In this document: positions 2,651-55,541 of the stretch, in pieces | Position numbering within the stretch: the stretch's first letter is position 1 | How the letters are laid out: the number at the start of each line of letters is the position of its first letter | Assembly: GCA_900315575.1 (NCBI GenBank) | Contig: OMZR01000001.1 | Coordinates: 16,071-80,070, forward strand | Direction of reading: 5' to 3' | Source of the DNA: an uncultured Veillonellaceae bacterium | Lineage (GTDB): Bacteria > Bacillota > Negativicutes > Selenomonadales > Selenomonadaceae | DNA length: 64,000 nucleotides | Position numbers and translations under genes: made by a program | Notes under the pieces: generated by a model | What the model was told of the DNA's origin: nothing | Database searches by the model: none | Seen by the model: the letters and a program-made list of their open reading frames with translations, nothing else

Positions 2651-3505
2651 ATGAAACTTTTGGACCAAGTCCCCGCTGCTTCTTTTGCCATTGTCGGCGG
2701 CTCCGGCACGCTTTCGAGTGATTTTCCTGCGCGGTCAAAGGACGCGGATGTCGAGATTCTCGCGGACGAGCTGCACTTTGCAACGCCATATGGCGCCAGC
2801 CCGGCCATGCGGCTGTTCTCCGTCGCGGGCAAGCGCGTGCTGACGTGCCGTATGCATGGCTGGCGCTCGGGCGTCACGCGCGCTGATGCCTCGCGGCAGG
2901 TGTTCTGGGTGTTCCGCGAAGCGGGCGTGCGGCGCATCCTCTCCGAGGGCGGCGTCGGCACGGTGAACAAGCTGCTCGATCTGCGGGATTTCATGATTCC
3001 GGACGATTACCTCGATCTCTCGTGCCGCAAGGACGTCATGCTCGATGGCAGGTACCTGCTCATCATGCGCGACGCGCTCTGTCCCGAGCTCCGCAAGGCG
3101 CTGATTTCCGCAACGCGAAAACATTTCGACGGCCGCATTTTCACGCGCGGCACGTATGCCGTGACGGACGGCCGCCACTTCGAGAGTCCGGCCGAGGTGG
3201 CGATGATGCAGGGCCATGCCGACATCGTCGGCCAGAGCATCGCGCCCGAGGTCTATCTTGCACGCGAGATTGGTGCCTGCTATGCAGGGCTCTATTTTAC
3301 GGTCAACTACGGCGAAGGCATTCGCCGCGCCTGGTCGCACGAGGATATGAAAGACATCTTTTACGACGATGCCCCGATGATCGGCGAAATCCTGCTCGAC
3401 ACGATCCGCAGCGTGGATGCCGATGAAAAGCACTGCGAGTGCGAGAGCCTGCGGAAGGAAACGCTGCTGAAGGACGTGTATAACGAAGTTTCCAGCAAAG
3501 GATAA
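2651..3505 (+). CDS. MTAP-family purine nucleoside phosphorylase
   Basis: MKLLDQVPAASFAIVGGSGTLS ... GWRSGVTRADASRQVFWVFREAGVRRILSEGGVGTVN ... FESPAEVAMMQGHADIVGQSIAPEVYLAREIGACYAG. RBS AAGGAAGGA lies 8 nt upstream of the ATG at 2651. An alternative ATG at 2630 overlaps the upstream stop. Confidence 0.8.
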   Translation: MKLLDQVPAASFAIVGGSGTLSSDFPARSKDADVEILADELHFATPYGASPAMRLFSVAGKRVLTCRMHGWRSGVTRADASRQVFWVFREAGVRRILSEGGVGTVNKLLDLRDFMIPDDYLDLSCRKDVMLDGRYLLIMRDALCPELRKALISATRKHFDGRIFTRGTYAVTDGRHFESPAEVAMMQGHADIVGQSIAPEVYLAREIGACYAGLYFTVNYGEGIRRAWSHEDMKDIFYDDAPMIGEILLDTIRSVDADEKHCECESLRKETLLKDVYNEVSSKG

Positions 3506-3528
3506 TTTGTTGGAGGTGGGATGACGTT

Positions 3529-4707
3529 ATGCAAGAACCGGAGACATTCTTATACGGAGCCCCCTTCTCAGAGGGGGGACGGGCCCGAAGGGCGGGGGGA
3601 GTCCCTTGCAGGAAAAAGCAATTTGCAGGCAGTTTCTTCCGCGGGGGCGATATCAAACGACTTTTCGGTGTCCTTTTTTTGATGATGCTGATGATTTCAA
3701 CCACCGCCTGCGGCCGCGAGCCCTATACGAAGACGGCGGTCATCATGGACACGGTCGTCGAGCTGCAGGCGGATGACGGGGAGCAGGAGCAGGCCGTCGA
3801 CGAGGGGCTCGCCTATCTCAAGAAACTCGACGCGCTCGCGAGCCAGAAGGACGGCAGCGATCTTACGGCGCTGCGCCTCGCGGCCGGGACGGGCGAGTGG
3901 GTGCAGGTTTCGCCCGAGATTTATGAAATGCTCGCCTTTTCGAAAGACTGGTCGGAAAAGACGAATGGCGCGTTCGACATCACGACGGGGCCGCTTATCA
4001 AGCTCTGGGGCATTGGCACAGAGAGCGAGCGCGTCCCATCGGACGCCGAAATCGCCGAGGCGCGCAGCCATGTCGGCTGGAAAAAGCTCGAGCTCCGCGC
4101 GGAAGACCACAGCGCCCGCCTGACGGAAGCCGGCATGCGCGTCCACCTCGGCGCCGTCGCAAAGGGCTATGCCATCGACGGTTTGCGCAAGATCTACGAG
4201 AAGCATGGCGTCAAAAACGGCCTCGTGAGCCTCGGCGGCAGCTCGATCTATGCGCTCGGGGAGAATCCGAAGGGCAAGAAGTGGCGCATCGGCATCCGCC
4301 ATCCGCGCGCAGACGACCCGAAGACATATCTCGGCGTCGCGCCGCTCAGCGATGCCGCGCTCTCGAGCTCCGGCGATTACGAGCGCTATTTCGAGCAGGA
4401 CGGCCAGCGCTACCATCATATCTTCGACCCATCGACGGGGCGTCCGGCCGTGACGGGCCTCGAAGGCGTTACCGTCATCGCGCATGGCGAGCATGCCGGA
4501 GAGCTTTCCGACATCCTCACGACGGCGCTCTTCGTGCTCGGCGAGGAAAAGGGCAAGGCACTGATCGAAAGTTGCGGCGAAGACGTGACAGCGCTTTTCG
4601 TGCGGCAGGACGGCACGGTGTTCCGCCTCGGTACGGCCGCGAGCGGCGATTTGCCCGACCTCAGGGGCGTTCTCGAGGACGTCGATGACAGTGTCGCGTG
4701 GGAGTGA
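3529..4707 (+). CDS. apbE: FAD:protein FMN transferase ApbE, lipoprotein
   Basis: Motifs GAFDITTGPLIKLWG, LGAVAKGYAIDG, SSSGDYERYF..DGQRYHHIFDPSTGRP. Lipoprotein signal KRLFGVLFLMMLMISTTAC. The only in-frame start upstream of the signal peptide is the ATG at 3529, which lies before repeat A1, so the first ~42 codons are repeat-derived. Confidence 0.85.
   Translation: MQEPETFLYGAPFSEGGRARRAGGVPCRKKQFAGSFFRGGDIKRLFGVLFLMMLMISTTACGREPYTKTAVIMDTVVELQADDGEQEQAVDEGLAYLKKLDALASQKDGSDLTALRLAAGTGEWVQVSPEIYEMLAFSKDWSEKTNGAFDITTGPLIKLWGIGTESERVPSDAEIAEARSHVGWKKLELRAEDHSARLTEAGMRVHLGAVAKGYAIDGLRKIYEKHGVKNGLVSLGGSSIYALGENPKGKKWRIGIRHPRADDPKTYLGVAPLSDAALSSSGDYERYFEQDGQRYHHIFDPSTGRPAVTGLEGVTVIAHGEHAGELSDILTTALFVLGEEKGKALIESCGEDVTALFVRQDGTVFRLGTAASGDLPDLRGVLEDVDDSVAWE
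3559..3654 (+). repeat. family-A structured repeat, long form (copy A1), inside the 5' end of apbE
   Basis: GCCCCCTTCTCAGAGGGGGG-AC-GGGCCCGAAGGGC-GGGGGGAGTCCCTTGCAGG...TTCTTCCGCGGGGGCGATATC. Same architecture as the copies at 5761, 33298, 35463, 36405 and 43341. Confidence 0.85.
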
Positions 4708-4774
4708 ACCACAAAATGCGAATGAATACAAAAAGCTTGCAGTTTCCACCTAAAAATCCACTACGAACAGGAGC

Positions 4775-5752
4775 ATGACGTCTATGGCCGAACAACCTTC
4801 GACCCCGCCCACGAAAGAAACGTATCCCACCCCGCCCGTTCATGAAACGGAAGCGGAGAATCCCATCCCCGTCGTCCCGGCAGTGAAGAAGACCATCGCC
4901 CAGCACCGCAAGGCGTCGTTTTACATCAAGAAGTACGTGATGATTTTTCTCGGCGCCATCATCGCGTCCATCGGCCTCGAGCTCTTCCTGATTCCGAACC
5001 ACGTCATCGACGGCGGCGTCGTCGGCCTCTCCATCATGGCGAGCACGGTCACGCCGATGTCGTTCGGCTTCTTCCTCGTCGTGATGAACCTGCCGTTCCT
5101 CTATCTCGGCTACAAGCAGATTGGCAAGAACTTCGCCATCGCGACGCTCATCGCCATCTGCTTCCTCTCGGCGTGGTCGGCCGTGTTCGAGACGCTGCCG
5201 CGCGTCACGGAGGATCCGTTCCTCGCTGCCATTTTCGGCGGCATCATCGACGGCCTCGGCGTCGGCCTCATCATCCGCGCGGGCGGCTCGCTCGACGGCA
5301 CCGAGATCGTCGCCATCATCATGGACAAGCGCTCCGTCTTTTCCGTCGGCGAAGTCGTCATGTTCATCAACCTCTTCATCCTTTCGAGCGCGGGCCTGCT
5401 GTTCGGCTGGGACAAGGCGATGTATTCGCTCGTCGCCTACTTCGTCATCTCGAAGATGATCGACGTCGTCATCAAGGGCCTCGACGAAAGCTATGCCGTC
5501 ATGATCGTCACGAACGAGCACGAGGCCATTACGTCCGCCCTCAATGACCGCCTCGGCCGCGGCGTGACGCTCCTCCATGGTGCGGGCGGCTACACGGGTG
5601 ACAGCAAGGAAGTCCTCTACTGCGTCGTCACGCGCCTCGAGGTGGACAAACTCAAAGAAATCGTGCTCGAAAAAGACGAAAATGCCTTCGTCACCATCAA
5701 CGCCGTCCATGATATCGTCGGCGGACGGTTCAAGAAAAAGGCGATTCATTGA
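4775..5752 (+). CDS. YitT family membrane protein (DUF2179 C-terminal domain)
   Basis: IIASIGLELFLIPNHVIDGGVVGLSIM, GGIIDGLGVGLIIRAGGSLDGTEI, and C-terminal YAVMIVTNEHEAITSALNDRLGRGVTLLHGAGGYTG. Confidence 0.85.
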   Translation: MTSMAEQPSTPPTKETYPTPPVHETEAENPIPVVPAVKKTIAQHRKASFYIKKYVMIFLGAIIASIGLELFLIPNHVIDGGVVGLSIMASTVTPMSFGFFLVVMNLPFLYLGYKQIGKNFAIATLIAICFLSAWSAVFETLPRVTEDPFLAAIFGGIIDGLGVGLIIRAGGSLDGTEIVAIIMDKRSVFSVGEVVMFINLFILSSAGLLFGWDKAMYSLVAYFVISKMIDVVIKGLDESYAVMIVTNEHEAITSALNDRLGRGVTLLHGAGGYTGDSKEVLYCVVTRLEVDKLKEIVLEKDENAFVTINAVHDIVGGRFKKKAIH

Positions 5753-5760
5753 TACCCCCA

Positions 5761-5855
5761 GCCCCCTTCTCAGAGGGGGGGAGGGCCGCTTGCGGCGGGG
5801 GGAGTCCCCTGCATGTCATTTGAATATGCAGGACGTGGCTTCCGCGGGTGCGAAC
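5761..5855 (+). repeat. family-A structured repeat, long form (A2)
   Basis: GCCCCCTTCTCAGAGGGGGGG-AG-GGCCGCTTGCGGC-GGGGGGAGTCCCCTGCATG...GCTTCCGCGGGTGCGAAC. Hairpin 2 has stem GCCG/CGGC with a CTTG loop. Confidence 0.85.
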
Positions 5856-28001: not shown

Positions 28002-28047
28002 GTGGGGGCGTATCTGGTAAAATGAAGAAAAATGTTGCTTTTAAGAG

Positions 28048-28229
28048 CAGCCCCCCTCATTGAGGGGGGACGGGCCCGAAGGGCGGGGGGAGTAGTAGGG
28101 AGCTATAGCCGAACAAAAAGCTGGTTGTAGGTAAAGGCTTTTAGCTGCAACGAAAAAACTCGTTCGGCTATCGCATCTTACTACTCCCACCACCGCTTCG
28201 CGGTCCCCCTCCCTCAATGAGGGAGGCTT
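28048..28229. mobile_element. MITE-like composite element: two inverted family-A heads flanking a palindromic core
   Basis: The left arm GCAGCCCCCCTCATTGAGGGGGGACGGGCCCGAAGGGCGGGGGGAGTAGTAGGG is an imperfect inverted repeat of the right arm CTTACTACTCCCACCACCGCTTCGCGGTCCCCCTCCCTCAATGAGGGAGGCTT. The core contains ATAGCCGAAC...GTTCGGCTAT. Confidence 0.8.
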
Positions 28230-30447: not shown

Positions 30448-30574
30448 AAAATTGCTGCCTCCTTGCGCGTACGTGTGTGACGTACATTTTGGATTAAAAA
30501 TAAGGACAGTTCCTATTGTAGCACAAGAAAGGACAGCTGTCTCCTGATTCGCGAGAAAAAGTTACAGAGAGTTC

Positions 30575-30703
30575 GTGGTCGCGGAGATTTGTTCGTGCTC
30601 GGACGCGGCCATGGGAGGTCTGTCGAAACCCACGGACGATTCCTTAACGGGTTTCTTGCAGACCTCCCATGGCCGCTCGAAGTTTGGCCTGGCGCACGCG
30701 AAG
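30575..30703 (+). repeat. family-B structured repeat (copy B1)
   Basis: Perfect 18-bp outer stem GCGGCCATGGGAGGTCTG (30605..30622) / CAGACCTCCCATGGCCGC (30659..30676). Inner stem GAAACCC/GGGTTTC. Conserved loop ACGGACGATTCCTTAAC. Flanks GTGGTCGCGGAG ... GGCGCACGCGAAG. Confidence 0.9.
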
Positions 30704-30715
30704 TTGATTTTTCGT

Positions 30716-30800
30716 CAGCCCCCCCCCTCATTGAGGGGGGACGGGCCCGAAGGGCGGGGGGAGTAGTTGGGTGCTGGAGCCTGACAAATCATCGCTTCCC
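30716..30800 (+). repeat. family-A head plus fragment of the composite-element core
   Basis: CAGCCCCCCCCTCATTGAGGGGGGACGGGCCCGAAGGGCGGGGGGAGTAGTTGGGTGCTGGAG. The last part matches the reverse complement of 39172..39190. Confidence 0.75.
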
Positions 30801-30810
30801 TAAGCTCATT

Positions 30811-32940
30811 TCATAAAATCCCCACCATCTTCAGCAGATACTCCGCATTCGTCGTGACGCACCGTCCCTCCCTCAGCCGGTAGTCAAACGCGATCTTTCC
30901 ATCCTCATAGTGTTCTTCAAAATGGGCGTTGCGGATGATGCCGCCTGGGGGTTCGAGCGTGCACAGTTCGAAATCATGCGTGGAGACGAGGGCGATGGTG
31001 TGGTCGTTTGTGAGACGCGAGAGCGCGGCTTCGGCACCGGTGATACGGTCGGCGCTGTTCGTGCCTTTGAAGATTTCATCGATGAGCAGCAGCAGCGGCT
31101 GGCCGGTTTCTTCAGCGGCGACCATGGTTTTGATGCGCAGGAGTTCGGCGTAGAAGGTGGAGATGCCGTGTGCGAGGTCGTCGTCGACGCGGATGGAGGT
31201 GTAGAGGGCGAGGGGCGAGAGGGCAAAGCGCTCAGCACAGACGGGGGCACCGGCCCAGGCGAGGATCGCGCTCATGCCGAGGGTGCGGAGCCAGGTGGTT
31301 TTGCCACTCATGTTCGATCCTGTGACGATGGTGGTGGAGGCGGCGAGGTCAGCGCTGTTTGGAACGGCGGTGGTTTCGGAGAGCAAGGGATTTTCGAGGG
31401 CCTGCGCAGTGATGTGCGGGCCTTTTTCTGCTGGCAGAAATTCGGGGTAGCAGAAGTGTACGCGCGTCGCAGGGATGGTGGAGAGGGAGAGCAGGACTTC
31501 GAATTCGCTCCAGACGGCGAGAAATCGTGGCAGGCGGGCGCCGTCCGTGCGGCACCAGCGGCGGAAAGAGAGGCCGGCGGCGAAGTCGAAGAGGAAGAGG
31601 GCGTTCGCGAGGGCGTAGAAGAAGAAGTTGCGGCGGGCTGCGACCCACGAGGCCAGGAGGGCGAGGCGGTGGAGGGATTGGGAGGCAGTGGTCGTGGTCG
31701 CGGAGGTTGGCTCGACGTTCGCGGAGTCGGGCTCGAGGTCGGACGCGGGCACGGGGGATTCACCGAAATCCACGGACGATTCCTTAACGGATTTCTTGTG
31801 AATCCCCCGTACCCGCTCGAAGGTTGGCTCGGCGCACGCGGAGTCGCTGTTCGTGGTCGCGGAGGTGGGCTCGTGGTCGGACGCGGTCAGGGGAGGCCTG
31901 CCGAAACCCACGGACGATTCCTTAACGGGTTTCTTGCAGGCCTCCTCTGCCCGCTCGAAGATGGGCTTGGCGCACGCGGAGGCACGATTCGTGGGCGCGA
32001 AGATTTGTTCGTGATCGGGCGTCGGCGCATCGCCGAGGAGGATGGATTGGAGTTCTGCTAAGTGGGGGCTGTGAAAGTGGGATTGTTCGATGGTGCGGAA
32101 GAGTTGCTCGTAGGCGGCAAGCGACGTTGCGAGGGGGCCGAGGAGAGCGAGGGCTTGGTCGGTTTGGCGGGCGGTGAGCCAGGCGAGGAGGAAGGAGAGG
32201 GCGAGGAGGGTGCCGGGGATGAGCCAGGAGAGGAGGCCCGCGGCGGCGCAGAGGAGGGTGATGAGGTTCAGGGGGACAAGCGTGACGCAGGCTGTGATGC
32301 GCCAGCGGGAGAGGCGGGGGCCTTCGCGGTCGAGGAGAGCGAGCAGGGGCGCTGTGTCGTGGCCTTCGGGCAGCAGGGCGCCGCAGGTTTCGAGCGTGAG
32401 GGCGAGGCGACGGTGTTCGGCGAGTTCGCGCAGGGCACCATGGCGAGCGCGGAGCAGGGTGGTGTCGTCAGGGGCTTTGGTGCGGAACGAGGCGGCGAGG
32501 CGGTCGCGGCCGGCTTTTGTGCGCGCACGGCAGAGATACTGATAGAGGGAGGCGGGGCCGAAGACGTGGAGGTCGGCGAACTGCGGCGGGGCACCCGGGG
32601 AGAGGCGGCCCGCGCCATCTTCGGGGAGCTGTTTCCAGCTGTCATCGAAACGTGCGAGAATGTCGGAGAGGACGGAGAGCTCGGCATCGCAGGTGAGAAT
32701 CTGCTGCGCGATGCGGTGGTGGCGCGTGACGAGCCGTACGAAAATGAACGCGAGCGCGATGGCGAGTGCATAGAATGGCGTGCGGCCGTCATAGCCCGCT
32801 GCGAAGGTGAAGACAGCGAGCGCGAAGGTCGCCGTGCGGAGAAATACAATCCGGCGGGATTCGCGGCGGAGCGTCGTACGGGTAGAAAGGGAGGTCTCGC
32901 GGGCGGAGAGGTAGAATTGGGAGAGGGAAGGAGCTGGCAT
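30811..32940 (-). CDS. MutS-related protein (membrane-associated N-terminal region plus MutS domain-V ATPase), carrying an in-frame repeat-derived insert
   Basis: C-terminal IVTGSNMSGKTTWLRTLGMSAILAWAGAPVCAE ... GISTFYAELLRIK ... LLLIDEIFKGTNSADRITGAEA ... LVSTHDFEL. Several hydrophobic helices lie N-terminally. The start MPAPSLSQFYL at 32940 is preferred because 32941..33153 is family-B repeat sequence. Confidence 0.8.
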   Translation of the reverse strand: MPAPSLSQFYLSARETSLSTRTTLRRESRRIVFLRTATFALAVFTFAAGYDGRTPFYALAIALAFIFVRLVTRHHRIAQQILTCDAELSVLSDILARFDDSWKQLPEDGAGRLSPGAPPQFADLHVFGPASLYQYLCRARTKAGRDRLAASFRTKAPDDTTLLRARHGALRELAEHRRLALTLETCGALLPEGHDTAPLLALLDREGPRLSRWRITACVTLVPLNLITLLCAAAGLLSWLIPGTLLALSFLLAWLTARQTDQALALLGPLATSLAAYEQLFRTIEQSHFHSPHLAELQSILLGDAPTPDHEQIFAPTNRASACAKPIFERAEEACKKPVKESSVGFGRPPLTASDHEPTSATTNSDSACAEPTFERVRGIHKKSVKESSVDFGESPVPASDLEPDSANVEPTSATTTTASQSLHRLALLASWVAARRNFFFYALANALFLFDFAAGLSFRRWCRTDGARLPRFLAVWSEFEVLLSLSTIPATRVHFCYPEFLPAEKGPHITAQALENPLLSETTAVPNSADLAASTTIVTGSNMSGKTTWLRTLGMSAILAWAGAPVCAERFALSPLALYTSIRVDDDLAHGISTFYAELLRIKTMVAAEETGQPLLLLIDEIFKGTNSADRITGAEAALSRLTNDHTIALVSTHDFELCTLEPPGGIIRNAHFEEHYEDGKIAFDYRLREGRCVTTNAEYLLKMVGIL
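31695..32020 (+). repeat. family-B tandem array (2 full units plus a partial) lying inside the MutS-related CDS
   Basis: Units have stems GCGGGCACGGGGGATTCAC/GTGAATCCCCCGTACCCGC and GCGGTCAGGGGAGGCCTG/CAGGCCTCCTCTGCCCGC around the conserved loop. They are translated on the minus strand as ..ACAKPIFERAEEACKKPVKESSVGFGRPP.. and ..ACAEPTFERVRGIHKKSVKESSVDFGESP.. Confidence 0.9.
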
Positions 32941-32955
32941 GGGAAAGATCCTTTC

Positions 32956-33296
32956 GTGGTCGCGGAGATTGGTTCGAGGTCGGACGTGGGCAGGGGGAGG
33001 TCTGCCGAACCCCACGGACGAGTCCTTAACGGGTTTCTTGCAGACCTCCCCTGCCCGCTCGAAGAATGGATTGGCGCACGCGAAGCTGCGGTTTGCGGTC
33101 GCGCAGATTTGTTTGAGGTCGGACGCGGACACGGGGGATTCACCGAAATCCACGGACGATTCCTTAACGGATTCCTTGCGAATCTCCCGTACCCGCTCGA
33201 AGTCTGGATTGGCGCACGCGGAGACGCTGTTCGAGGCCGCGGAGATTTGTTCGTGCGCGGGAGGAGGCCTGATGCACGCGGAGTAGCCTCGGAGCC
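32956..33296 (+). repeat. family-B tandem array (2 full units plus a partial)
   Basis: Same unit structure as B1. It lies between the MutS-related start and the stop of the upstream M48 gene. Confidence 0.9.
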
Positions 33297-33297
33297 A

Positions 33298-33390
33298 GCC
33301 CCCTTCTAGAGGGGGGACGGGCCCGAAGGGCGGGGGGAGTCCCTTGTACGGCTTAACAAAAAGCAGGGACAGATTTCCGCGGGTGCGATA
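33298..33390 (+). repeat. family-A structured repeat, long form (A3)
   Basis: GCCCCCTTCTAGAGGGGGG-AC-GGGCCCGAAGGGC-GGGGGGAGTCCCTTGTACGG...ATTTCCGCGGGTGCGATA. Confidence 0.85.
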
Positions 33391-34988: not shown

Positions 34989-35455
34989 GGCTCGTGGTTG
35001 CGGAGACAGGTTCGTGCGCGGACGCGGCCAGGGGAGGCCTGCCGAAACCCACGGACGATTCCTTAACGGGTTTCTTGCAGGCCTCCCCTGACCGCTCGAA
35101 GATGGGCTGGTGTGCGCGAAGAGGGGCATGGCTTCGCAGTCGCGGAGGCGGGCTTGTAGTCGGACGCGGGCACGGGGGATTCACCGAAATCCACGGATGA
35201 TTCCCTGCGGGCGCAATGATAAATTCGTCCGTCCATCTTGGCGCATCTTTTTTACCCTCTCTTCGTCGGCAAATCCTTGACGTAGCTTTGCTACGCCTGC
35301 GGACTTGCCTCCTCGATAGGGCAAAAAATCTGCGACAATCTGGACGAACTCATTTTATCATTGCGTCCTTGACGGAGTTCTTGCGAATCCCCCGTGCCCG
35401 CTCGAAGATAGATCTGACGCACGCGAAGTTGAGATTTGTACACGCGGCGCAACCT
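34972..35455 (+). repeat. family-B tandem array (one intact unit, one unit interrupted by a nested element, plus partials)
   Basis: Intact unit with stem GCGGCCAGGGGAGGCCTG/CAGGCCTCCCCTGACCGC. The second unit GCGGGCACGGGGGATTCAC...GCGAATCCCCCGTGCCCGC has its loop split at 35204/35366. Confidence 0.9.
35205..35365. mobile_element. small TIR-bounded insertion (MITE-like) nested in the loop of a family-B unit
   Basis: Terminal inverted repeats GCGCAATGATAAATTCGTCC (35211..35230) and GGACGAACTCATTTTATCATTGCG (35342..35365). The loop sequence ACGGATGATTCC | insert | TCCTTGACGG shows a short TCC duplication. Confidence 0.7.
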
Positions 35456-35462
35456 TGGAGCT

Positions 35463-35556
35463 AGCCCCCTTCTAGAGGGGGGACGGGCCCGAAGGGCGGG
35501 GGGAGTCCCCTGTAGGGCGATTGAAATAGCAGGTCGTTTCTTCCGCGGGTGCGATA
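35463..35556 (+). repeat. family-A structured repeat, long form (A4)
   Basis: GCCCCCTTCTAGAGGGGGG-AC-GGGCCCGAAGGGC-GGGGGGAGTCCCCTGTAGGG...TTCTTCCGCGGGTGCGATA. It ends 24 nt before the larE ATG. Confidence 0.85.
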
Positions 35557-36404: not shown

Positions 36405-36500
36405 GCCCCCCTCTAGAGGGGGGACGGGCCGCGTGAGCGGCGGGGGGAGTCCCCTGCATGGCGGGGCAAGCAGCAGAATGTGTTTTCCGCGGGTGCGAAT
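36405..36500 (+). repeat. family-A structured repeat, long form (A5)
   Basis: GCCCCCCTCTAGAGGGGGG-AC-GGGCCGCGTGAGCGGC-GGGGGGAGTCCCCTGCATGG...TTTTCCGCGGGTGCGAAT. Hairpin 2 is GCCGC-GTGA-GCGGC. The repeat starts directly after the larE stop. Confidence 0.85.
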
Positions 36501-39023: not shown

Positions 39024-39050
39024 TGGCAGAAGTGGAACTGACCTTATACA

Positions 39051-39236
39051 GCAGCCTCCCTCATAGAGGGAGGGGGACCGCGAAGCGGTGGTGGGAGTAG
39101 TAGGATACTGAAGCCGAACGAGGTCGTTGTTTTCACTAAAGTCCTTTAGCAACGTTCCACATACTTGTGTGTCTCCAGCATCCAACTACTCCCCCAGTCT
39201 CGCTTCGCTCGACAGCCCCCTCAATGAAGGGGCCTT
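39051..39236. mobile_element. second copy of the MITE-like composite element (inverted relative to 28048..28229)
   Basis: Left arm GCAGCCTCCCTCATAGAGGGAGGGGGACCGCGAAGCGGTGGTGGGAGTAGTAGG. Right arm ACTACTCCCCCAGTCTCGCTTCGCTCGACAGCCCCCTCAATGAAGGGGC. The core shares AGCCGAACGAG with the other copy. Confidence 0.75.
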
Positions 39237-40484: not shown

Positions 40485-40496
40485 TAGATAGGTAGA

Positions 40497-40620
40497 GCGC
40501 TCGCGGAGAGGCAGTCGTGCCCGGACGCGGCAAACAGGGGCCTGCCGAAACCCACGGACGATTCCTTAACGGGTTTCTTGCAGGCTCCTTTTTGCTGCTC
40601 GAAGATGAGCAGCGGACGCT
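40497..40620 (+). repeat. family-B structured repeat (B6)
   Basis: GCGGCAAACAGGGGCCTG-CCGAAACCCACGGACGATTCCTTAACGGGTTTCTTG-CAGGCTCCTTTTTGCTGC. Confidence 0.85.
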
Positions 40621-40677
40621 ATCTCTTTTTTGCTCTGCATGATATAATGAGAAAAAGAGTTGCGAGGAGGGAGTTGC

Positions 40678-42300: not shown

Positions 42301-43101
42301 TTACCGCCCGATCATCATGATGGCGCCGCCGATCGTCGGCATGGCGACGATGCAGAATTTCAGGACGGGCATAGGGGCGAGGTGGGTGCCTTTCGCACCG
42401 AACCAGGCGCCGATCATGAGGCCGGAGAGGGTCTGGAGAAAGATGGAGAGGTCGAGGTGGCCAGACACCAGGTAGCCGAGGCCACCGGCGGCGGAGACGG
42501 GCAGGATGATCATCATGCAGGTGCCGATGGCCTGGATGAGCGGGACGCCGAAGATGACCATGAGCGCGAGCTGGATGTAGGCGGCTGCGCCGATGCCGAA
42601 TGCGCCGGAGAGGAAGCCGCAGATGAGGCCCGTGAGGATGCCGTAAATCCAGAGCTTCCGTCCTGTGAGCAGCGTCTCGCGTACAGGGAAGTGGGCGGCG
42701 AGCCATTCGGCGTGGTAGAGCTTGACGTAGAGGATGACGGCGGACGAAAGGATCATGAGCGCCGTCATGAACGAGAGGTCGGCGGCGGGCAGAATGTTCG
42801 ACGTGGCCGCGCCGAGCAGAGCGCCGACGATGCCGCCGGAGCCGATAATGGCACCGACTTTCGGGATGACTTCGTGTTGGCGGAAATGGGAGAGGGCGCC
42901 CGAGAGCATGGTGAAGACCATGGAGGCGAGTGCGACGGCAAGGGCCGTGTGGATGGGGACGCCGAAGCCGACGACGAGCAGGGTGATGGTGACGCCGGCC
43001 CCGCCCGCACCGACAAAGCCGATGAGGGCGCCGAGGATGAGCATGGATGCAAAGATCATAAAAGTTCCTTTCGTAGTCGCTGGCATCGCGGGGGCTTTCA
43101 A
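42301..43101 (-). CDS. sulfite exporter TauE/SafE family protein
   Basis: Polytopic. LIGFVGAGGAGVTITLLVVGFGVPIHTALAVALASMV, GAFGIGAAAYIQLALMVIFGVP. Confidence 0.85.
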   Translation of the reverse strand: MKAPAMPATTKGTFMIFASMLILGALIGFVGAGGAGVTITLLVVGFGVPIHTALAVALASMVFTMLSGALSHFRQHEVIPKVGAIIGSGGIVGALLGAATSNILPAADLSFMTALMILSSAVILYVKLYHAEWLAAHFPVRETLLTGRKLWIYGILTGLICGFLSGAFGIGAAAYIQLALMVIFGVPLIQAIGTCMMIILPVSAAGGLGYLVSGHLDLSIFLQTLSGLMIGAWFGAKGTHLAPMPVLKFCIVAMPTIGGAIMMIGR

Positions 43102-43262
43102 CGAAATCCGGGACGTTCGCTGCGCTCACTAAAACGGATTTCTTATGAAAGTCCCCGTGATGCCCGAAGTTGCGAGGATGCAACAGAACCCACGGACGAT
43201 TCCTTAACGGGTTCCTTATGCATCCCCGTTTCCGCCCGAAGAAGTATTCGCGAACGCGCAGG
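43075..43262 (+). repeat. two degenerate family-B units (B7 with a divergent loop, B8 with the canonical loop)
   Basis: B7 has stem GGCATCGCGGGGGCTTTCA/TGAAAGTCCCCGTGATGCC, inner stem GAAATCC/GGATTTC, and a different loop. B8 is GGATGCA-ACAGAACCCACGGACGATTCCTTAACGGGTTCCTTA-TGCATCC. Confidence 0.75.
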
Positions 43263-43340
43263 AAAGCCCAACGCCGCGAAGAGACGTTGTCGAGAGACAG
43301 CATGGCGCTTTTGAAGAAACGGAGCGTTTCTTTTTGCGAA

Positions 43341-43437
43341 GCCTCCCTCTTTGAGGGAGGGGGACCGCGAAGCGGTGGTGGGAGTCCCCTGCATGGCGAA
43401 ACAATTCGTACGGCAGAACTTTCGCGGGTGCGATATA
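43341..43437 (+). repeat. family-A structured repeat, long form (A6)
   Basis: GCCTCCCTCTTTGAGGGAGG-GGG-ACCGCGAAGCGGT-GGTGGGAGTCCCCTGCATGG...CTTTCGCGGGTGCGATATA. Both hairpin stems carry compensatory changes relative to A1. Confidence 0.85.
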
Positions 43438-43477: not shown

Positions 43478-43552
43478 TGGTGACACCTATGGGATTCGAA
43501 CCCATGAACCCGGCGTGAGAGGCCGGTGTCTTAACCGCTTGACGAAGGTGCC
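43478..43552 (-). tRNA. tRNA-Glu (anticodon CUC)
   Basis: Reverse complement GGCACCTTCGTCAAGCGGTTAAGACACCGGCCTCTCACGCCGGGTTCATGGGTTCGAATCCCATAGGTGTCACCA. It folds as a cloverleaf with anticodon stem CCGGC/GCCGG, loop CT-CTC-AC, T-arm ATGGG/CCCAT, and an encoded CCA. Confidence 0.9.
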
Positions 43553-43554
43553 GA

Positions 43555-43629
43555 TGGTGACGCCTATGAGATTCGAACTCATGAACCCGGCGTGAGAGGC
43601 CGGTGTCTTAACCGCTTGACGAAGGCGCC
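43555..43629 (-). tRNA. tRNA-Glu (anticodon CUC), second tandem copy
   Basis: Reverse complement GGCGCCTTCGTCAAGCGGTTAAGACACCGGCCTCTCACGCCGGGTTCATGAGTTCGAATCTCATAGGCGTCACCA. It differs from copy 1 only by compensated acceptor and T-stem changes. Confidence 0.9.
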
Positions 43630-53773: not shown

Positions 53774-54565
53774 ATGGAAGAAAAAATGAAGAAACGGATG
53801 TTTTCTGGAATGCTCGTAGCGGCCGTTGCCGTTGCGGGGCAGTTCGTCCAGCCGCAGGCGGGGATGCCTGCGGTCGGCATGCAGCAGGCGGAAGCCTTCA
53901 GCCTCGGCGGTGCGCTGGGCAGCGTCCTCAATGCGGTGTTCCAGCTCGACATGGGCAGCATGCAGAGCCATCAGCAGAGCCTGATGAAGAATCTCGCCTG
54001 GGCGGCACAGCTCGAAGCCGTTTCGGCGGAGCGCTGGGGTCATGTCGCGAATGTCGATACGGCGCGCGCAGCCGCTGCTTCGAACAGCGCGAAGGCGTTC
54101 CTCCAGAACGGCGACTATTCCCTGCCGAAATTCAAGGCATTCCATTCGTCGTTCGCATCGAACATCGCGCTTTCCGATGGCGACAAGACGCAGATGACGA
54201 CGTCGCTCGACAACCTGATGACGGACAAGGACAAGCTGACGACGGAGCAGAACACGCAGTACGTCACGGAGGCAAAGAAAGCGCGCCGCATGGCGGCAAC
54301 GTATAACGCGCTGGCGGCCAAAGATGCGGCCTACATCATCCATGGCGCCGTGAAGGCATTCGCGAGCGGCAATCTCGGCGACCAGCTTTCGGCTGTGCAG
54401 AGCATGGCTGATGTTGCGAAGGAAGCTCAGTCCTTCCTGAAGCTTCAGCGGGACGTTTCGAAGGAGCGCGCCAATCTGACGCAGAAAGCCGAAAAAGCCA
54501 TGAACGTCAAGGATCCGAGCGACAAGGATGCGAAAGCATACGCAAAAAGCCTCGGCATGGAATAA
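53774..54565 (+). CDS. secreted, predicted alpha-helical protein, paralog 1 (unknown family)
   Basis: Signal MKKRMFSGMLVAAVAVAGQ. Shares the blocks LAWAAQLEAVSAERWG, ASNSAKAFLQNGDYSL, KDKLTTEQNTQYVTEAKKARRMAATYNALA, SKERANLTQKAEKAMNVKDP and a C-terminal SLGME with the next gene. Confidence 0.75.
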   Translation: MEEKMKKRMFSGMLVAAVAVAGQFVQPQAGMPAVGMQQAEAFSLGGALGSVLNAVFQLDMGSMQSHQQSLMKNLAWAAQLEAVSAERWGHVANVDTARAAAASNSAKAFLQNGDYSLPKFKAFHSSFASNIALSDGDKTQMTTSLDNLMTDKDKLTTEQNTQYVTEAKKARRMAATYNALAAKDAAYIIHGAVKAFASGNLGDQLSAVQSMADVAKEAQSFLKLQRDVSKERANLTQKAEKAMNVKDPSDKDAKAYAKSLGME

Positions 54566-54645: not shown

Positions 54646-54689
54646 ACAGTGAAAAAAGTTCTTTTTGAGTGAAGATAGGAGTCTTGGTC

Positions 54690-55541
54690 ATGAAGAAGAA
54701 AAACATGGTTGTTTCCGGCGTCCTCGCAGCTGTTGTTGCAGTTTCCGGGCAGTTCGTCCAGGTTGGCCAGGGAAATGGCATCCACTTCGGCACGCAGAGC
54801 GCGGCGGCCTTCGGCCTCAAGATGCCGAAGATCAAGACGGGCATTTCGTCCGTGGATGACCAGGCAAACAAGGCTGCCAAGCAGACGGCGGAAAACGCTG
54901 TGAAAAAGGCGTTCAACGTTGACATCTCGAGCATGGGCAACCGCAAGCAGGATATGCTGAAGCACCTCGCATGGGCAGCACGCCTCGAAGCTGTCTCGGC
55001 CGATCGCTGGGGCAAGGTCGCAGGCACGGATACGGCAGAAGCACAGGCCGCTTCGAACAGCGCGCAGGCATTCCTCGCGAACGGGGACTTCTCTCTTTCG
55101 ACGTTCAAGAACTTCAGCTCGAACTACCAGTCGAAGATGAAGCTTTCCGATAATCAGAAACAGGCCTATGCGGCGCTGGACAAGGCACTCGTTTCGGAGA
55201 AAGACAAGCTGACGACGGAGCAGAACAAGACATATGTGACGGATGCAAAGAAAGCCCGCAAGATGGCTGCCGTCTACAATGCGCTGGCGGTGCGTGATGC
55301 CGGCCTGCTGCTCTCGGATACGGCAAAAGCGCTCGCGCACAAGTCGGATCTCGGCAGCCAGCTCGATGAAGTGCAGGAGCTTGCTTCGTTCGCCAATGAG
55401 GCAAAATCGTTTGTCGATGCGCAGAAGAAGATTTCGAAGGAGCGTGCCGATCTGACGAAGAAAGCCGAGAAGGCCATGAATGTCAAGGAGCCGACGGAGC
55501 AGGAGAACAAGGATTTCGCCAAGACGCTCGGCATGGAATAA
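54690..55541 (+). CDS. secreted, predicted alpha-helical protein, paralog 2 (unknown family)
   Basis: Signal MKKKNMVVSGVLAAVVAVSGQ. The shared blocks are listed under paralog 1. RBS AGGAG lies 8 nt upstream of the ATG at 54690. Confidence 0.75.
   Translation: MKKKNMVVSGVLAAVVAVSGQFVQVGQGNGIHFGTQSAAAFGLKMPKIKTGISSVDDQANKAAKQTAENAVKKAFNVDISSMGNRKQDMLKHLAWAARLEAVSADRWGKVAGTDTAEAQAASNSAQAFLANGDFSLSTFKNFSSNYQSKMKLSDNQKQAYAALDKALVSEKDKLTTEQNKTYVTDAKKARKMAAVYNALAVRDAGLLLSDTAKALAHKSDLGSQLDEVQELASFANEAKSFVDAQKKISKERADLTKKAEKAMNVKEPTEQENKDFAKTLGME

Follow-up and report, generated by a model that had tools for sequence, protein, structure and literature searches.

How does a protein-coding gene stay open when more than two units of a structured DNA repeat lie inside it? 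This question is raised by a MutS-related ATPase gene in a stretch of 64,000 nucleotides from an uncultured Veillonellaceae bacterium of the lineage Selenomonadaceae (assembly GCA_900315575.1, contig OMZR01000001.1, positions 16,071 to 80,070 of the forward strand), referred to here as the window. The gene carries an array of a 138-bp hairpin repeat, family B, copies of which also occupy the spacers on both sides of it. An initial annotation had described this array as an exaptation like that of the Rickettsia palindromic elements (RPEs), and had offered a tolerated disordered insert, inactivation of the gene or regulation by mRNA hairpins as its possible meanings. The analysis described here points, with good confidence, to a passenger insert that the protein tolerates, as RPEs are tolerated in Rickettsia, and not to a new functional module. 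The same confidence extends, jointly, to family B being a previously undescribed repeat scattered over the spacers of Selenomonadaceae from gut and rumen that form a narrow clade.

The array and its host gene

The gene and the parts of the array are as follows.

30811..32940, minus strand: MutS-related ATPase gene, 709 residues from ATG 32940, with a MutS domain V ATPase, a helical core and, at the N-terminus, hydrophobic helices
31690..32022, minus strand: family B array inside the gene, 333 nt or 111 codons, 2.4 units, residues ~306-416
31690..31710, plus strand: 21-nt unit start GGTCGTGGTCGCGGAGGTTGG, the 3′ edge of the array in gene sense, with the exact 14-mer TCGTGGTCGCGGAG at 31692, from DNA alignment with locus L032 of a sister species
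31711..31848, plus strand: full unit 1, stem type GGGGGATTCAC..GTGAATCCCCC, constant core 31770-31790, nhmmer score 125
31849..31986, plus strand: full unit 2, stem type GGGGAGGCCTGC..GCAGGCCTCC, constant core 31908-31928, nhmmer score 135
31987..32022, plus strand: 36-nt piece of a unit (model positions 2-36) that forms the 5′ edge of the array in gene sense, nhmmer partial match 31988-32022

The partial pieces contribute 57 nt beyond the two full 138-nt units. Tandem Repeats Finder recovers a period of 138, with 2.0 copies at 31719-31999 and 2.2 copies at 32953-33253, and a repeat search of the window puts the identity between the in-gene segment and family B copies in spacers at 74-87%. These limits match well the two and a half units and about 110 codons initially placed at 31695-32020; the open reading frame (ORF) through the repeat and its translation were likewise reproduced. 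Judged from this frame, the array would be translated as a hydrophilic stretch of ~105-111 residues.

The only Pfam domain in the host protein is MutS_V (E 5e-26). Scores of 107.6 against the MutS1 NCBIfam equivalog cut-off of 641.7, and of 67.4 against the MutS2 cut-off of 400, show that it is neither MutS1 nor MutS2. Its homologues are Selenomonas ‘MutS family’ proteins, and a Foldseek search with its structural model returns MutS/MSH chains as top matches (E 1e-13 to 1e-11). The protein resembles domain-V-only MutS paralogues in its ATPase domain and helical core, as aligned by Foldseek with MutS/MSH, but differs from them in its predicted hydrophobic helices; mismatch-binding and clamp domains went undetected. 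We propose to describe it as a membrane-associated MutS-related ATPase, and we know of no function for this family. In the NCBIfam alignment residue 476 corresponds to MutS model position 533, and by extrapolation from there the insert may lie at the position of the clamp domain.

An insert of variable length

Protein alignment with orthologues (alignment A1), together with DNA alignment to L032, defines the boundaries of the segment and shows it to be specific to one lineage. The array is missing from the nearest orthologue of a different species (P0006, 598 residues, 79% identical, locus L032) and from all distant orthologues. It is present at differing lengths in the alleles P0001, P0002 and P0004, which are 98-99% identical to the window. 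The earlier description of an ordinary MutS-related gene outside a lineage-specific in-frame repeat is thus upheld by the alignments. Between near-identical alleles, DNA alignment of the orthologous loci reveals length differences of 138, 138, 42 and 36 nt, each of them in frame. Recombination is the probable source of the changes in copy number. Faulty assembly does not explain the insert, since three contigs of different samples carry the P0002 allele.

The ‘empty’ site of L032 retains GCTCGTGGTCGCGGAGCTGGG, a near-perfect match to the 21-nt unit start. Filled and empty sites differ by the array bounded by its partial units, and the 21 nt that the empty site keeps could represent either a footprint or a seed. 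No clear target-site duplication was found at the MutS site in the alignment with L032 and the comparison of flanks. The piece kept by the sister species is the one feature that would suit an array of ancestral coding sequence since lost by other lineages. Such an origin, or one by faulty assembly, is nevertheless very improbable given that the segment is absent from every orthologue outside two sister lineages, that it shares its identity with repeat copies in spacers and that independent contigs from several samples carry it.

Other Selenomonas species (P0011, P0012, P0015, P0021, P0025, P0047 and P0076) have unrelated Ala/Pro/Gly-rich inserts of ~25-90 residues at the same point (alignment A1, columns 398-510). 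Some of these include ~13-residue tandem repeats (ADAPxGxAAPGxA).

Family B as a dispersed hairpin repeat

With a profile of seven units, nhmmer recovers ten family B copies in the window, all of them on the plus strand. Outside the MutS-related gene, family B is located as follows.

32952..33260, plus strand: upstream array of two units and a partial one, in the spacer between a YgjP-like gene and the MutS-related start
30571..30708, plus strand: single unit that separates the stop codon of the MutS-related gene from the start of an alanine/sodium symporter gene
34990-35446, 40493-40630 and 43078-43261, plus strand: further copies, the last degenerate

Each unit forms a single long hairpin. 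Of the seven folds, six reach -60 to -77 kcal/mol with z of about -3.5 to -5.8, the exception being the upstream unit 33091-33228 (-51 kcal/mol, z -1.0), whose energy is equalled by 38 of 200 shuffles. Within the gene, unit 1 (31711-31848) folds at -77 kcal/mol on the plus strand and -70 on the minus strand (z ~ -5.4 to -5.8), and unit 2 (31849-31986) at -77 and -60 kcal/mol. Stems vary widely yet remain complementary, with 95.7% of cells paired in an alignment of 43 copies, as against at most 63% in slid controls. Covariation is extensive: 14 of 22 stem pairs have changed on both sides, giving 167 double-change cells where shuffles give 54 +/- 9. Since G-U and A-C mismatches are balanced (19 versus 16), neither strand is favoured.

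The constant part of the unit is the 21-nt tip of the hairpin, CCACGGACGAKTCCTTAACGG. With one genome searched per species, an exact match was found in only four Selenomonas or Selenomonadaceae metagenome-assembled genomes; 36 metagenome contigs hold it as well. That the tip is invariant among the fetched loci is partly by construction, these loci having been found by the tip motif; the window's full copies, eight in number, were not chosen in this way, and all of them carry it. Exact core scans matched no viral contig and no plasmid, and hence give no sign of a phage or plasmid origin. At the gathering score, Rfam 15 recognises only two tRNAs in the window, and a relaxed search adds only chance matches to microRNA hairpins. 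Searches of the literature on Selenomonas repeats and on the core sequence found no description of the element. Terminal inverted repeats are absent from the consensus, the ends of which, GnTCGTGGTCGCGGAG and GCnCGCGAAG, share CGCGRAG as a direct and not an inverted repeat.

The majority of family B copies are intergenic. In several species units occupy equivalent spacer positions, by the symporter leader and after a PNP_UDP_1 gene, with stem types that vary from one species to another. At least four further species have a unit beside the symporter leader, and the left flank is common to loci L004, L012, L017 and L028. The leader itself is a conserved plus-strand element of ~70 nt, TAAGGACAGTTCCTATTGTAGCAC...GAGAAAAAGTTACAG, found in five species and placed in the window at 30500-30570, between the family B unit and the symporter start. 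It flanks family B copies at L004 3601, L012 3679, L017 4403 and L028 7086, and has no Rfam match. Across these five species the symporter protein is 97-98% identical, the neighbouring genes 78-89%.

Reading frames through the repeat

The unit of 138 nt equals 46 codons. When frames are anchored on the core, four of the six are fully open in 30, 35, 37 and 43 of 48 copies (63-90%), the frame used in the MutS-related gene being that open in 37, and the remaining two are always closed by the TTAA of the core. An open frame through a unit of whole codons with four usually stop-free frames needs no special explanation. The peptide of the used frame is polar and near-neutral, with a grand average of hydropathy of -0.45 to -0.71. 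Of the alternatives, one would raise the charge of each unit by +6 to +9; both frames on the plus strand give more hydrophobic peptides.

The same openness accounts for an apparent N-terminal extension of the host protein. A longer open frame, 30811..33153 on the minus strand, would give 780 residues from a GTG within a unit loop, as the upstream array is in frame with the gene in the window, and the public gene models P0001 and P0002 include this extension. ATG 32940 is equivalent to the Met start of the orthologues (alignment A1), and a ribosome-binding site can be proposed from the sequence just before it:

32949..32954, minus strand: putative ribosome-binding site AAAGGA, directly adjoining the end of the upstream family B unit and 8 nt ahead of ATG 32940

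In L032 the unit end, AAAGGA and ATG are arranged as in the window, and a 1-nt difference before the ATG puts the one unit upstream of the gene into another frame. The frame difference, together with a ribosome-binding site and start codon at the unit end in both species, makes the extension an artefact of the open frames of the repeat. The segment 32941-33153, initially recorded as an N-terminal extension formed by the same repeat, was accordingly rejected as coding sequence: it is a mere open frame that is not conserved as coding in the sister species.

On the minus strand the constant loop reads TTAAGGAATCGTCCGTG (mRNA UUAAGGAAUCGUCCGUG), with a Shine-Dalgarno-like AAGGA 7 nt before a GTG in the MutS frame; examples in the window are at 31790-31770, 31928-31908 and 33165-33151, and the GTG codons of the two full in-gene units are at 31778-31776 and 31916-31914. 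Both the ORF listing and public gene models begin ORFs at this GTG (MDFGESPV...). The plus-strand loop holds UCCUUA, which resembles the 3′ tail of 16S rRNA.

Tolerance, decay or function

Several lines of evidence suggest that the host protein is still functional. Compared with the insert-free sister, and with the insert left out, its ratio of non-synonymous to synonymous substitution rates (dN/dS) is 0.22. A relative-rate test counts 38 amino-acid changes specific to the window against 29 specific to the sister (p ~0.3), with similar results for six other outgroups, and so gives no acceleration in the insert-bearing lineage. All family-invariant residues of the ATPase, including the Walker motifs, are present (alignment A1). 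The AlphaFold model has a mean predicted local distance difference test (pLDDT) score of 78 and falls below 50 only at residues 307-313 and 315-414, with confident helices at 292-302 and 419-437 on either side. The structure prediction suggested in the initial annotation thus places the insert between confident helices, where it is probably disordered, as modelled from an alignment that is thin at this point. Among the three meanings first offered, a tolerated disordered insert fits the alignment, the model, dN/dS and the rate test best, and inactivation and mRNA regulation are the lesser rivals.

A tolerated insert would work as follows. An array of ~2.4 units would be translated within a length-tolerant loop of the host protein. 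The gene would survive because a unit is a whole number of codons (46) and normally stop-free in four of six frames, because the frame in use yields the mildest peptide, polar and near-neutral, and because the site lies between two helices at a point of variable length across the genus. Recombination between units would then let the copy number drift, with selection retaining only in-frame outcomes.

Some observations weigh against tolerance, and part of them suit the view that repeat invasion is a step in the loss of a dispensable MutS paralogue, the frame being open merely because the repeat is poor in stops. A thin alignment may account for part of the low pLDDT of the insert. Within species, the changes (5 synonymous and 10 non-synonymous; 7 and 10; 3 and 2) cannot reject neutrality since insertion, with dN/dS of 0.24-0.70 on very few changes. 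The lineage of L032 may once have had the array and lost it, through recombination between the partial units at its ends, or may have retained no more than a seed. The allele L074 (P0005) has a 5-nt deletion, CGCAT, at window-equivalent 32711-32715, which shifts the frame near the N-terminus. In L004 (RUG371 scaffold_3525, 2766-5210) the YgjP-like gene, a single family B unit at 3601-3735 and the symporter follow each other with no MutS-related gene between them, so that the gene may be dispensable in the clade. The default openness of the repeat in the MutS frame, noted above, would also be expected under decay. Against decay, five of six alleles keep an intact ORF over 1992-2130 nt, both non-unit indels (42 and 36 nt) are multiples of three, dN/dS between species is low, the rate is not raised relative to the insert-free sister and the Walker and other invariant motifs are intact. 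The arrangement in L004 comes from short metagenome reads and is either a real deletion between flanking family B units or a collapse of these units in assembly, the gene being flanked by direct units both in the window and in L032. Decay is an improbable account of the locus. The L074 allele is known from one pig-gut metagenome contig, on which the gene caller predicts a 605-residue product with a false start.

A selected function has a slightly smaller chance than decay. The array might serve as a flexible linker of variable length, or its mRNA hairpins (-60 to -70 kcal/mol) might pause ribosomes or start a separate C-terminal ATPase product. The strong hairpin energies would agree with this, as would the loop motif in eight of eight full window units that were not selected by motif, and the gene callers that begin ORFs exactly at the loop GUG. 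Of the spacer copies between co-directional genes, 31 of 42 are antisense to the model orientation, which would put AAGGA..GUG on the mRNA strand, on crude gene calls and non-independent copies. However, near-identical strains differ in copy number, the peptide is not conserved because the stems covary at the DNA level, and the G-U and A-C counts lack the strand preference expected of a structure that acts only as RNA. Moreover, the insert-free sister keeps the same gene, and the loop motif was recognised post hoc. A passenger insert tolerated by a working protein remains the best account of the array.

In-frame copies in other genes

The MutS-related gene is not the only host. Repeat-core loci were scanned for ORFs spanning a copy, and these were checked by Pfam, NCBIfam, the PDB and orthologue alignments, proteins that lack the insert among them. 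Insertions were found in the following genes.

L010: HypF, ~58 residues more than in 4g9i, with the family B insert placed between YrdC and Kae1
L038: HypF, family B insert within a loop of the YrdC domain
L014: RecF, ~37-46 extra residues, with a score still above the RecF equivalog cut-off
L010, L046 and L052: NifE/N-like oxidoreductase, family B inserts at two sites
L056 and L073: CobT-like VWA protein, insert-free relatives ~556-585 residues, insert-bearing proteins 633-802 residues with whole-unit differences

All exact-core copies in the MutS-related, HypF and NifE/N-like genes use the MutS frame. That a single frame serves all in-gene copies was nonetheless rejected, as the CobT-like protein has sense-orientation copies in two other frames. 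The spanning ORFs at L007, L065, L056 4993-6066, L068 and L039 were discarded as antisense artefacts, with no Pfam match and an Arg/Gly-rich composition.

The insert peptide itself leads to few relatives. A phmmer search against 1.84 billion cluster representatives returned two short spurious ORFs of spacer repeats and false positives among TPR proteins. A word-indexed search returned one short ORF, and was uninformative in that it missed the known positives P0001-P0005.

The HypF ORF of L038 (1120-3543, minus strand) also has a Ser/Pro/Arg-rich low-complexity insert of ~170 residues between YrdC and Kae1, at residues ~250-415. It ends in SPRPTATTNQP, resembling the end of a family B unit (EPTSATTN), and may consist of decayed repeat copies.

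A partner repeat, family A

Family B is accompanied by a second dispersed repeat, family A, with the core CCCCCYTCnnnGAGGGGGGACGGGCCCGAAGGGCGGGGGGAGT. It forms two short GC hairpins and has four G-runs that fit the G-quadruplex pattern G3+N1-7G3+N1-7G3+N1-7G3+. Family A usually lies at one end of family B arrays, as it does on both sides of the MutS-related gene, where the copies belong to repeat families D5, D7 and D8.

30717..30788, plus strand: family A copy CCCCCCTCATTGAGGGGGGACGGGCCCGAAGGGCGGGGGGAGT, adjoining the family B unit
33293..33389, plus strand: family A copy at the far end of the upstream family B array
3555-3651, 5762-5854, 28046-28117, 35459-35555, 36407-36499, 39028-39098 and 43315-43434: further family A copies

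In the CobT-like protein (L073 2341-4443; P0129, alignment A3 columns ~670-700) a stretch derived from family A, QPPSLRGEGLKGGGSPLYG / SLKRQPPSLRGEGLKGGGSPLYG, stands in frame beside family B units, so that more than one repeat family would be translated in this clade.

Two tandem tRNA-Glu(CTC) genes that are 95% identical, at 43478-43552 and 43555-43629 on the minus strand, adjoin the degenerate family B copies at 43078-43261 and the family A copy at 43315-43434.

Comparison with known repeat systems

The closest parallel to family B by behaviour is found in the RPEs. In a 2024 review, RPEs are described as palindromes of ~140-150 bp that occur in spacers and in frame within unrelated housekeeping genes (Ogata et al., 2000, 2002; PMC10969869). 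Such copies lengthen the protein by ~45-50 residues where the fold permits it, and a recognisable peptide comes mostly from one frame (PMC10969869). Similar events in other prokaryotes are considered conceivable, though not documented at scale (PMC10969869). Family B shares with RPEs, as described there, the size of the hairpin unit (138 nt), the location in spacers and the in-frame copies in several unrelated genes. In contrast to RPEs, whose hosts are obligate intracellular alpha-proteobacteria, family B resides in free-living anaerobic Negativicutes. It is GC-rich, forms head-to-tail tandem arrays of strain-variable copy number and has a constant 21-nt tip on covarying stems. Its copies in genes use at least three frames and both orientations, and the second family, A, is also in frame. 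Homology to RPE families is unlikely in view of the GC-rich composition of family B and of how distant its host is. Of the phrase ‘RPE-like exaptation’ used initially, the likeness holds, the same repeat being in frame in HypF, RecF, NifE/N-like and CobT-like genes; exaptation is not supported, nothing pointing to a gained function, and the copy number varies between strains and the peptide follows changes in the stems.

Other bacterial repeats offer partial likenesses. The repetitive extragenic palindromes (REP), bacterial interspersed mosaic elements (BIME) and REP doublets forming hairpins (REPINs) of proteobacteria are also GC-rich hairpins in spacers and operons that are often clustered and keep their structure while stems vary. 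Like family B, they could serve in mRNA stabilisation or in binding a protein. The family B hairpin is much longer than the 20-40-nt palindrome of REP and REPINs, spanning ~55-75 nt within the 138-nt unit, and it lacks a GTAG/CGTC head at the foot of the stem, the constant part being the loop instead. Among MITEs (miniature transposable elements with inverted repeats), the bacterial ERIC, BOX and Correia elements are reported to fuse with ORFs (PMC10969869). They resemble family B as small, non-autonomous, structured repeats that at times extend or interrupt ORFs in frame, but family B differs from MITEs in a consensus without terminal inverted repeats; at the MutS site, with an array bounded by partial units, no clear target-site duplication was seen. 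On the features that could be tested, family B falls outside the definitions of both MITE and REP. To our knowledge, it has no parent insertion sequence. It joins the ‘protein-coding palindrome’ kind of element, to which it adds tandem variation in copy number, a constant loop and a partner repeat.

In-frame palindromic repeats, described as a peculiarity of Rickettsia, are thus produced here by a different repeat in a free-living group and in at least five genes. Described species of the group, such as Selenomonas bovis, are cultured, and natural alleles differ by whole units. These existing alleles allow direct tests of insert tolerance, of the filtering of frames by selection and of repeat-driven loop growth in protein evolution. 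There are also consequences for annotation. Gene callers run ORFs through the repeats and create false N-termini, as in models of 734 and 754 residues, and short-read metagenome assemblies may collapse or drop genes flanked by repeats.

A further-reading proposal, tentative and rather doubtful at present, takes families B and A together as an undescribed structured repeat whose 21-nt loop is a handle for a dedicated trans-acting factor, be it a recombinase, a transposase or an RNA-binding protein. Across a Selenomonadaceae clade, operon spacers and permissive protein loops alike would have been colonised by this repeat, and the AAGGA-N7-GUG of the loop may turn in-gene copies into internal translation starts. 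If so, Rickettsia would be joined by an independent second system of the ‘protein-coding palindrome’ type, and one that is tractable by experiment.

Elsewhere in the window, two adjacent paralogous ORFs on the plus strand, 53774-54565 (263 residues) and 54669-55541 (290 residues), share blocks of 71-79% DNA identity (repeat families D9 and D12), and the pair looks like a tandem gene duplication.

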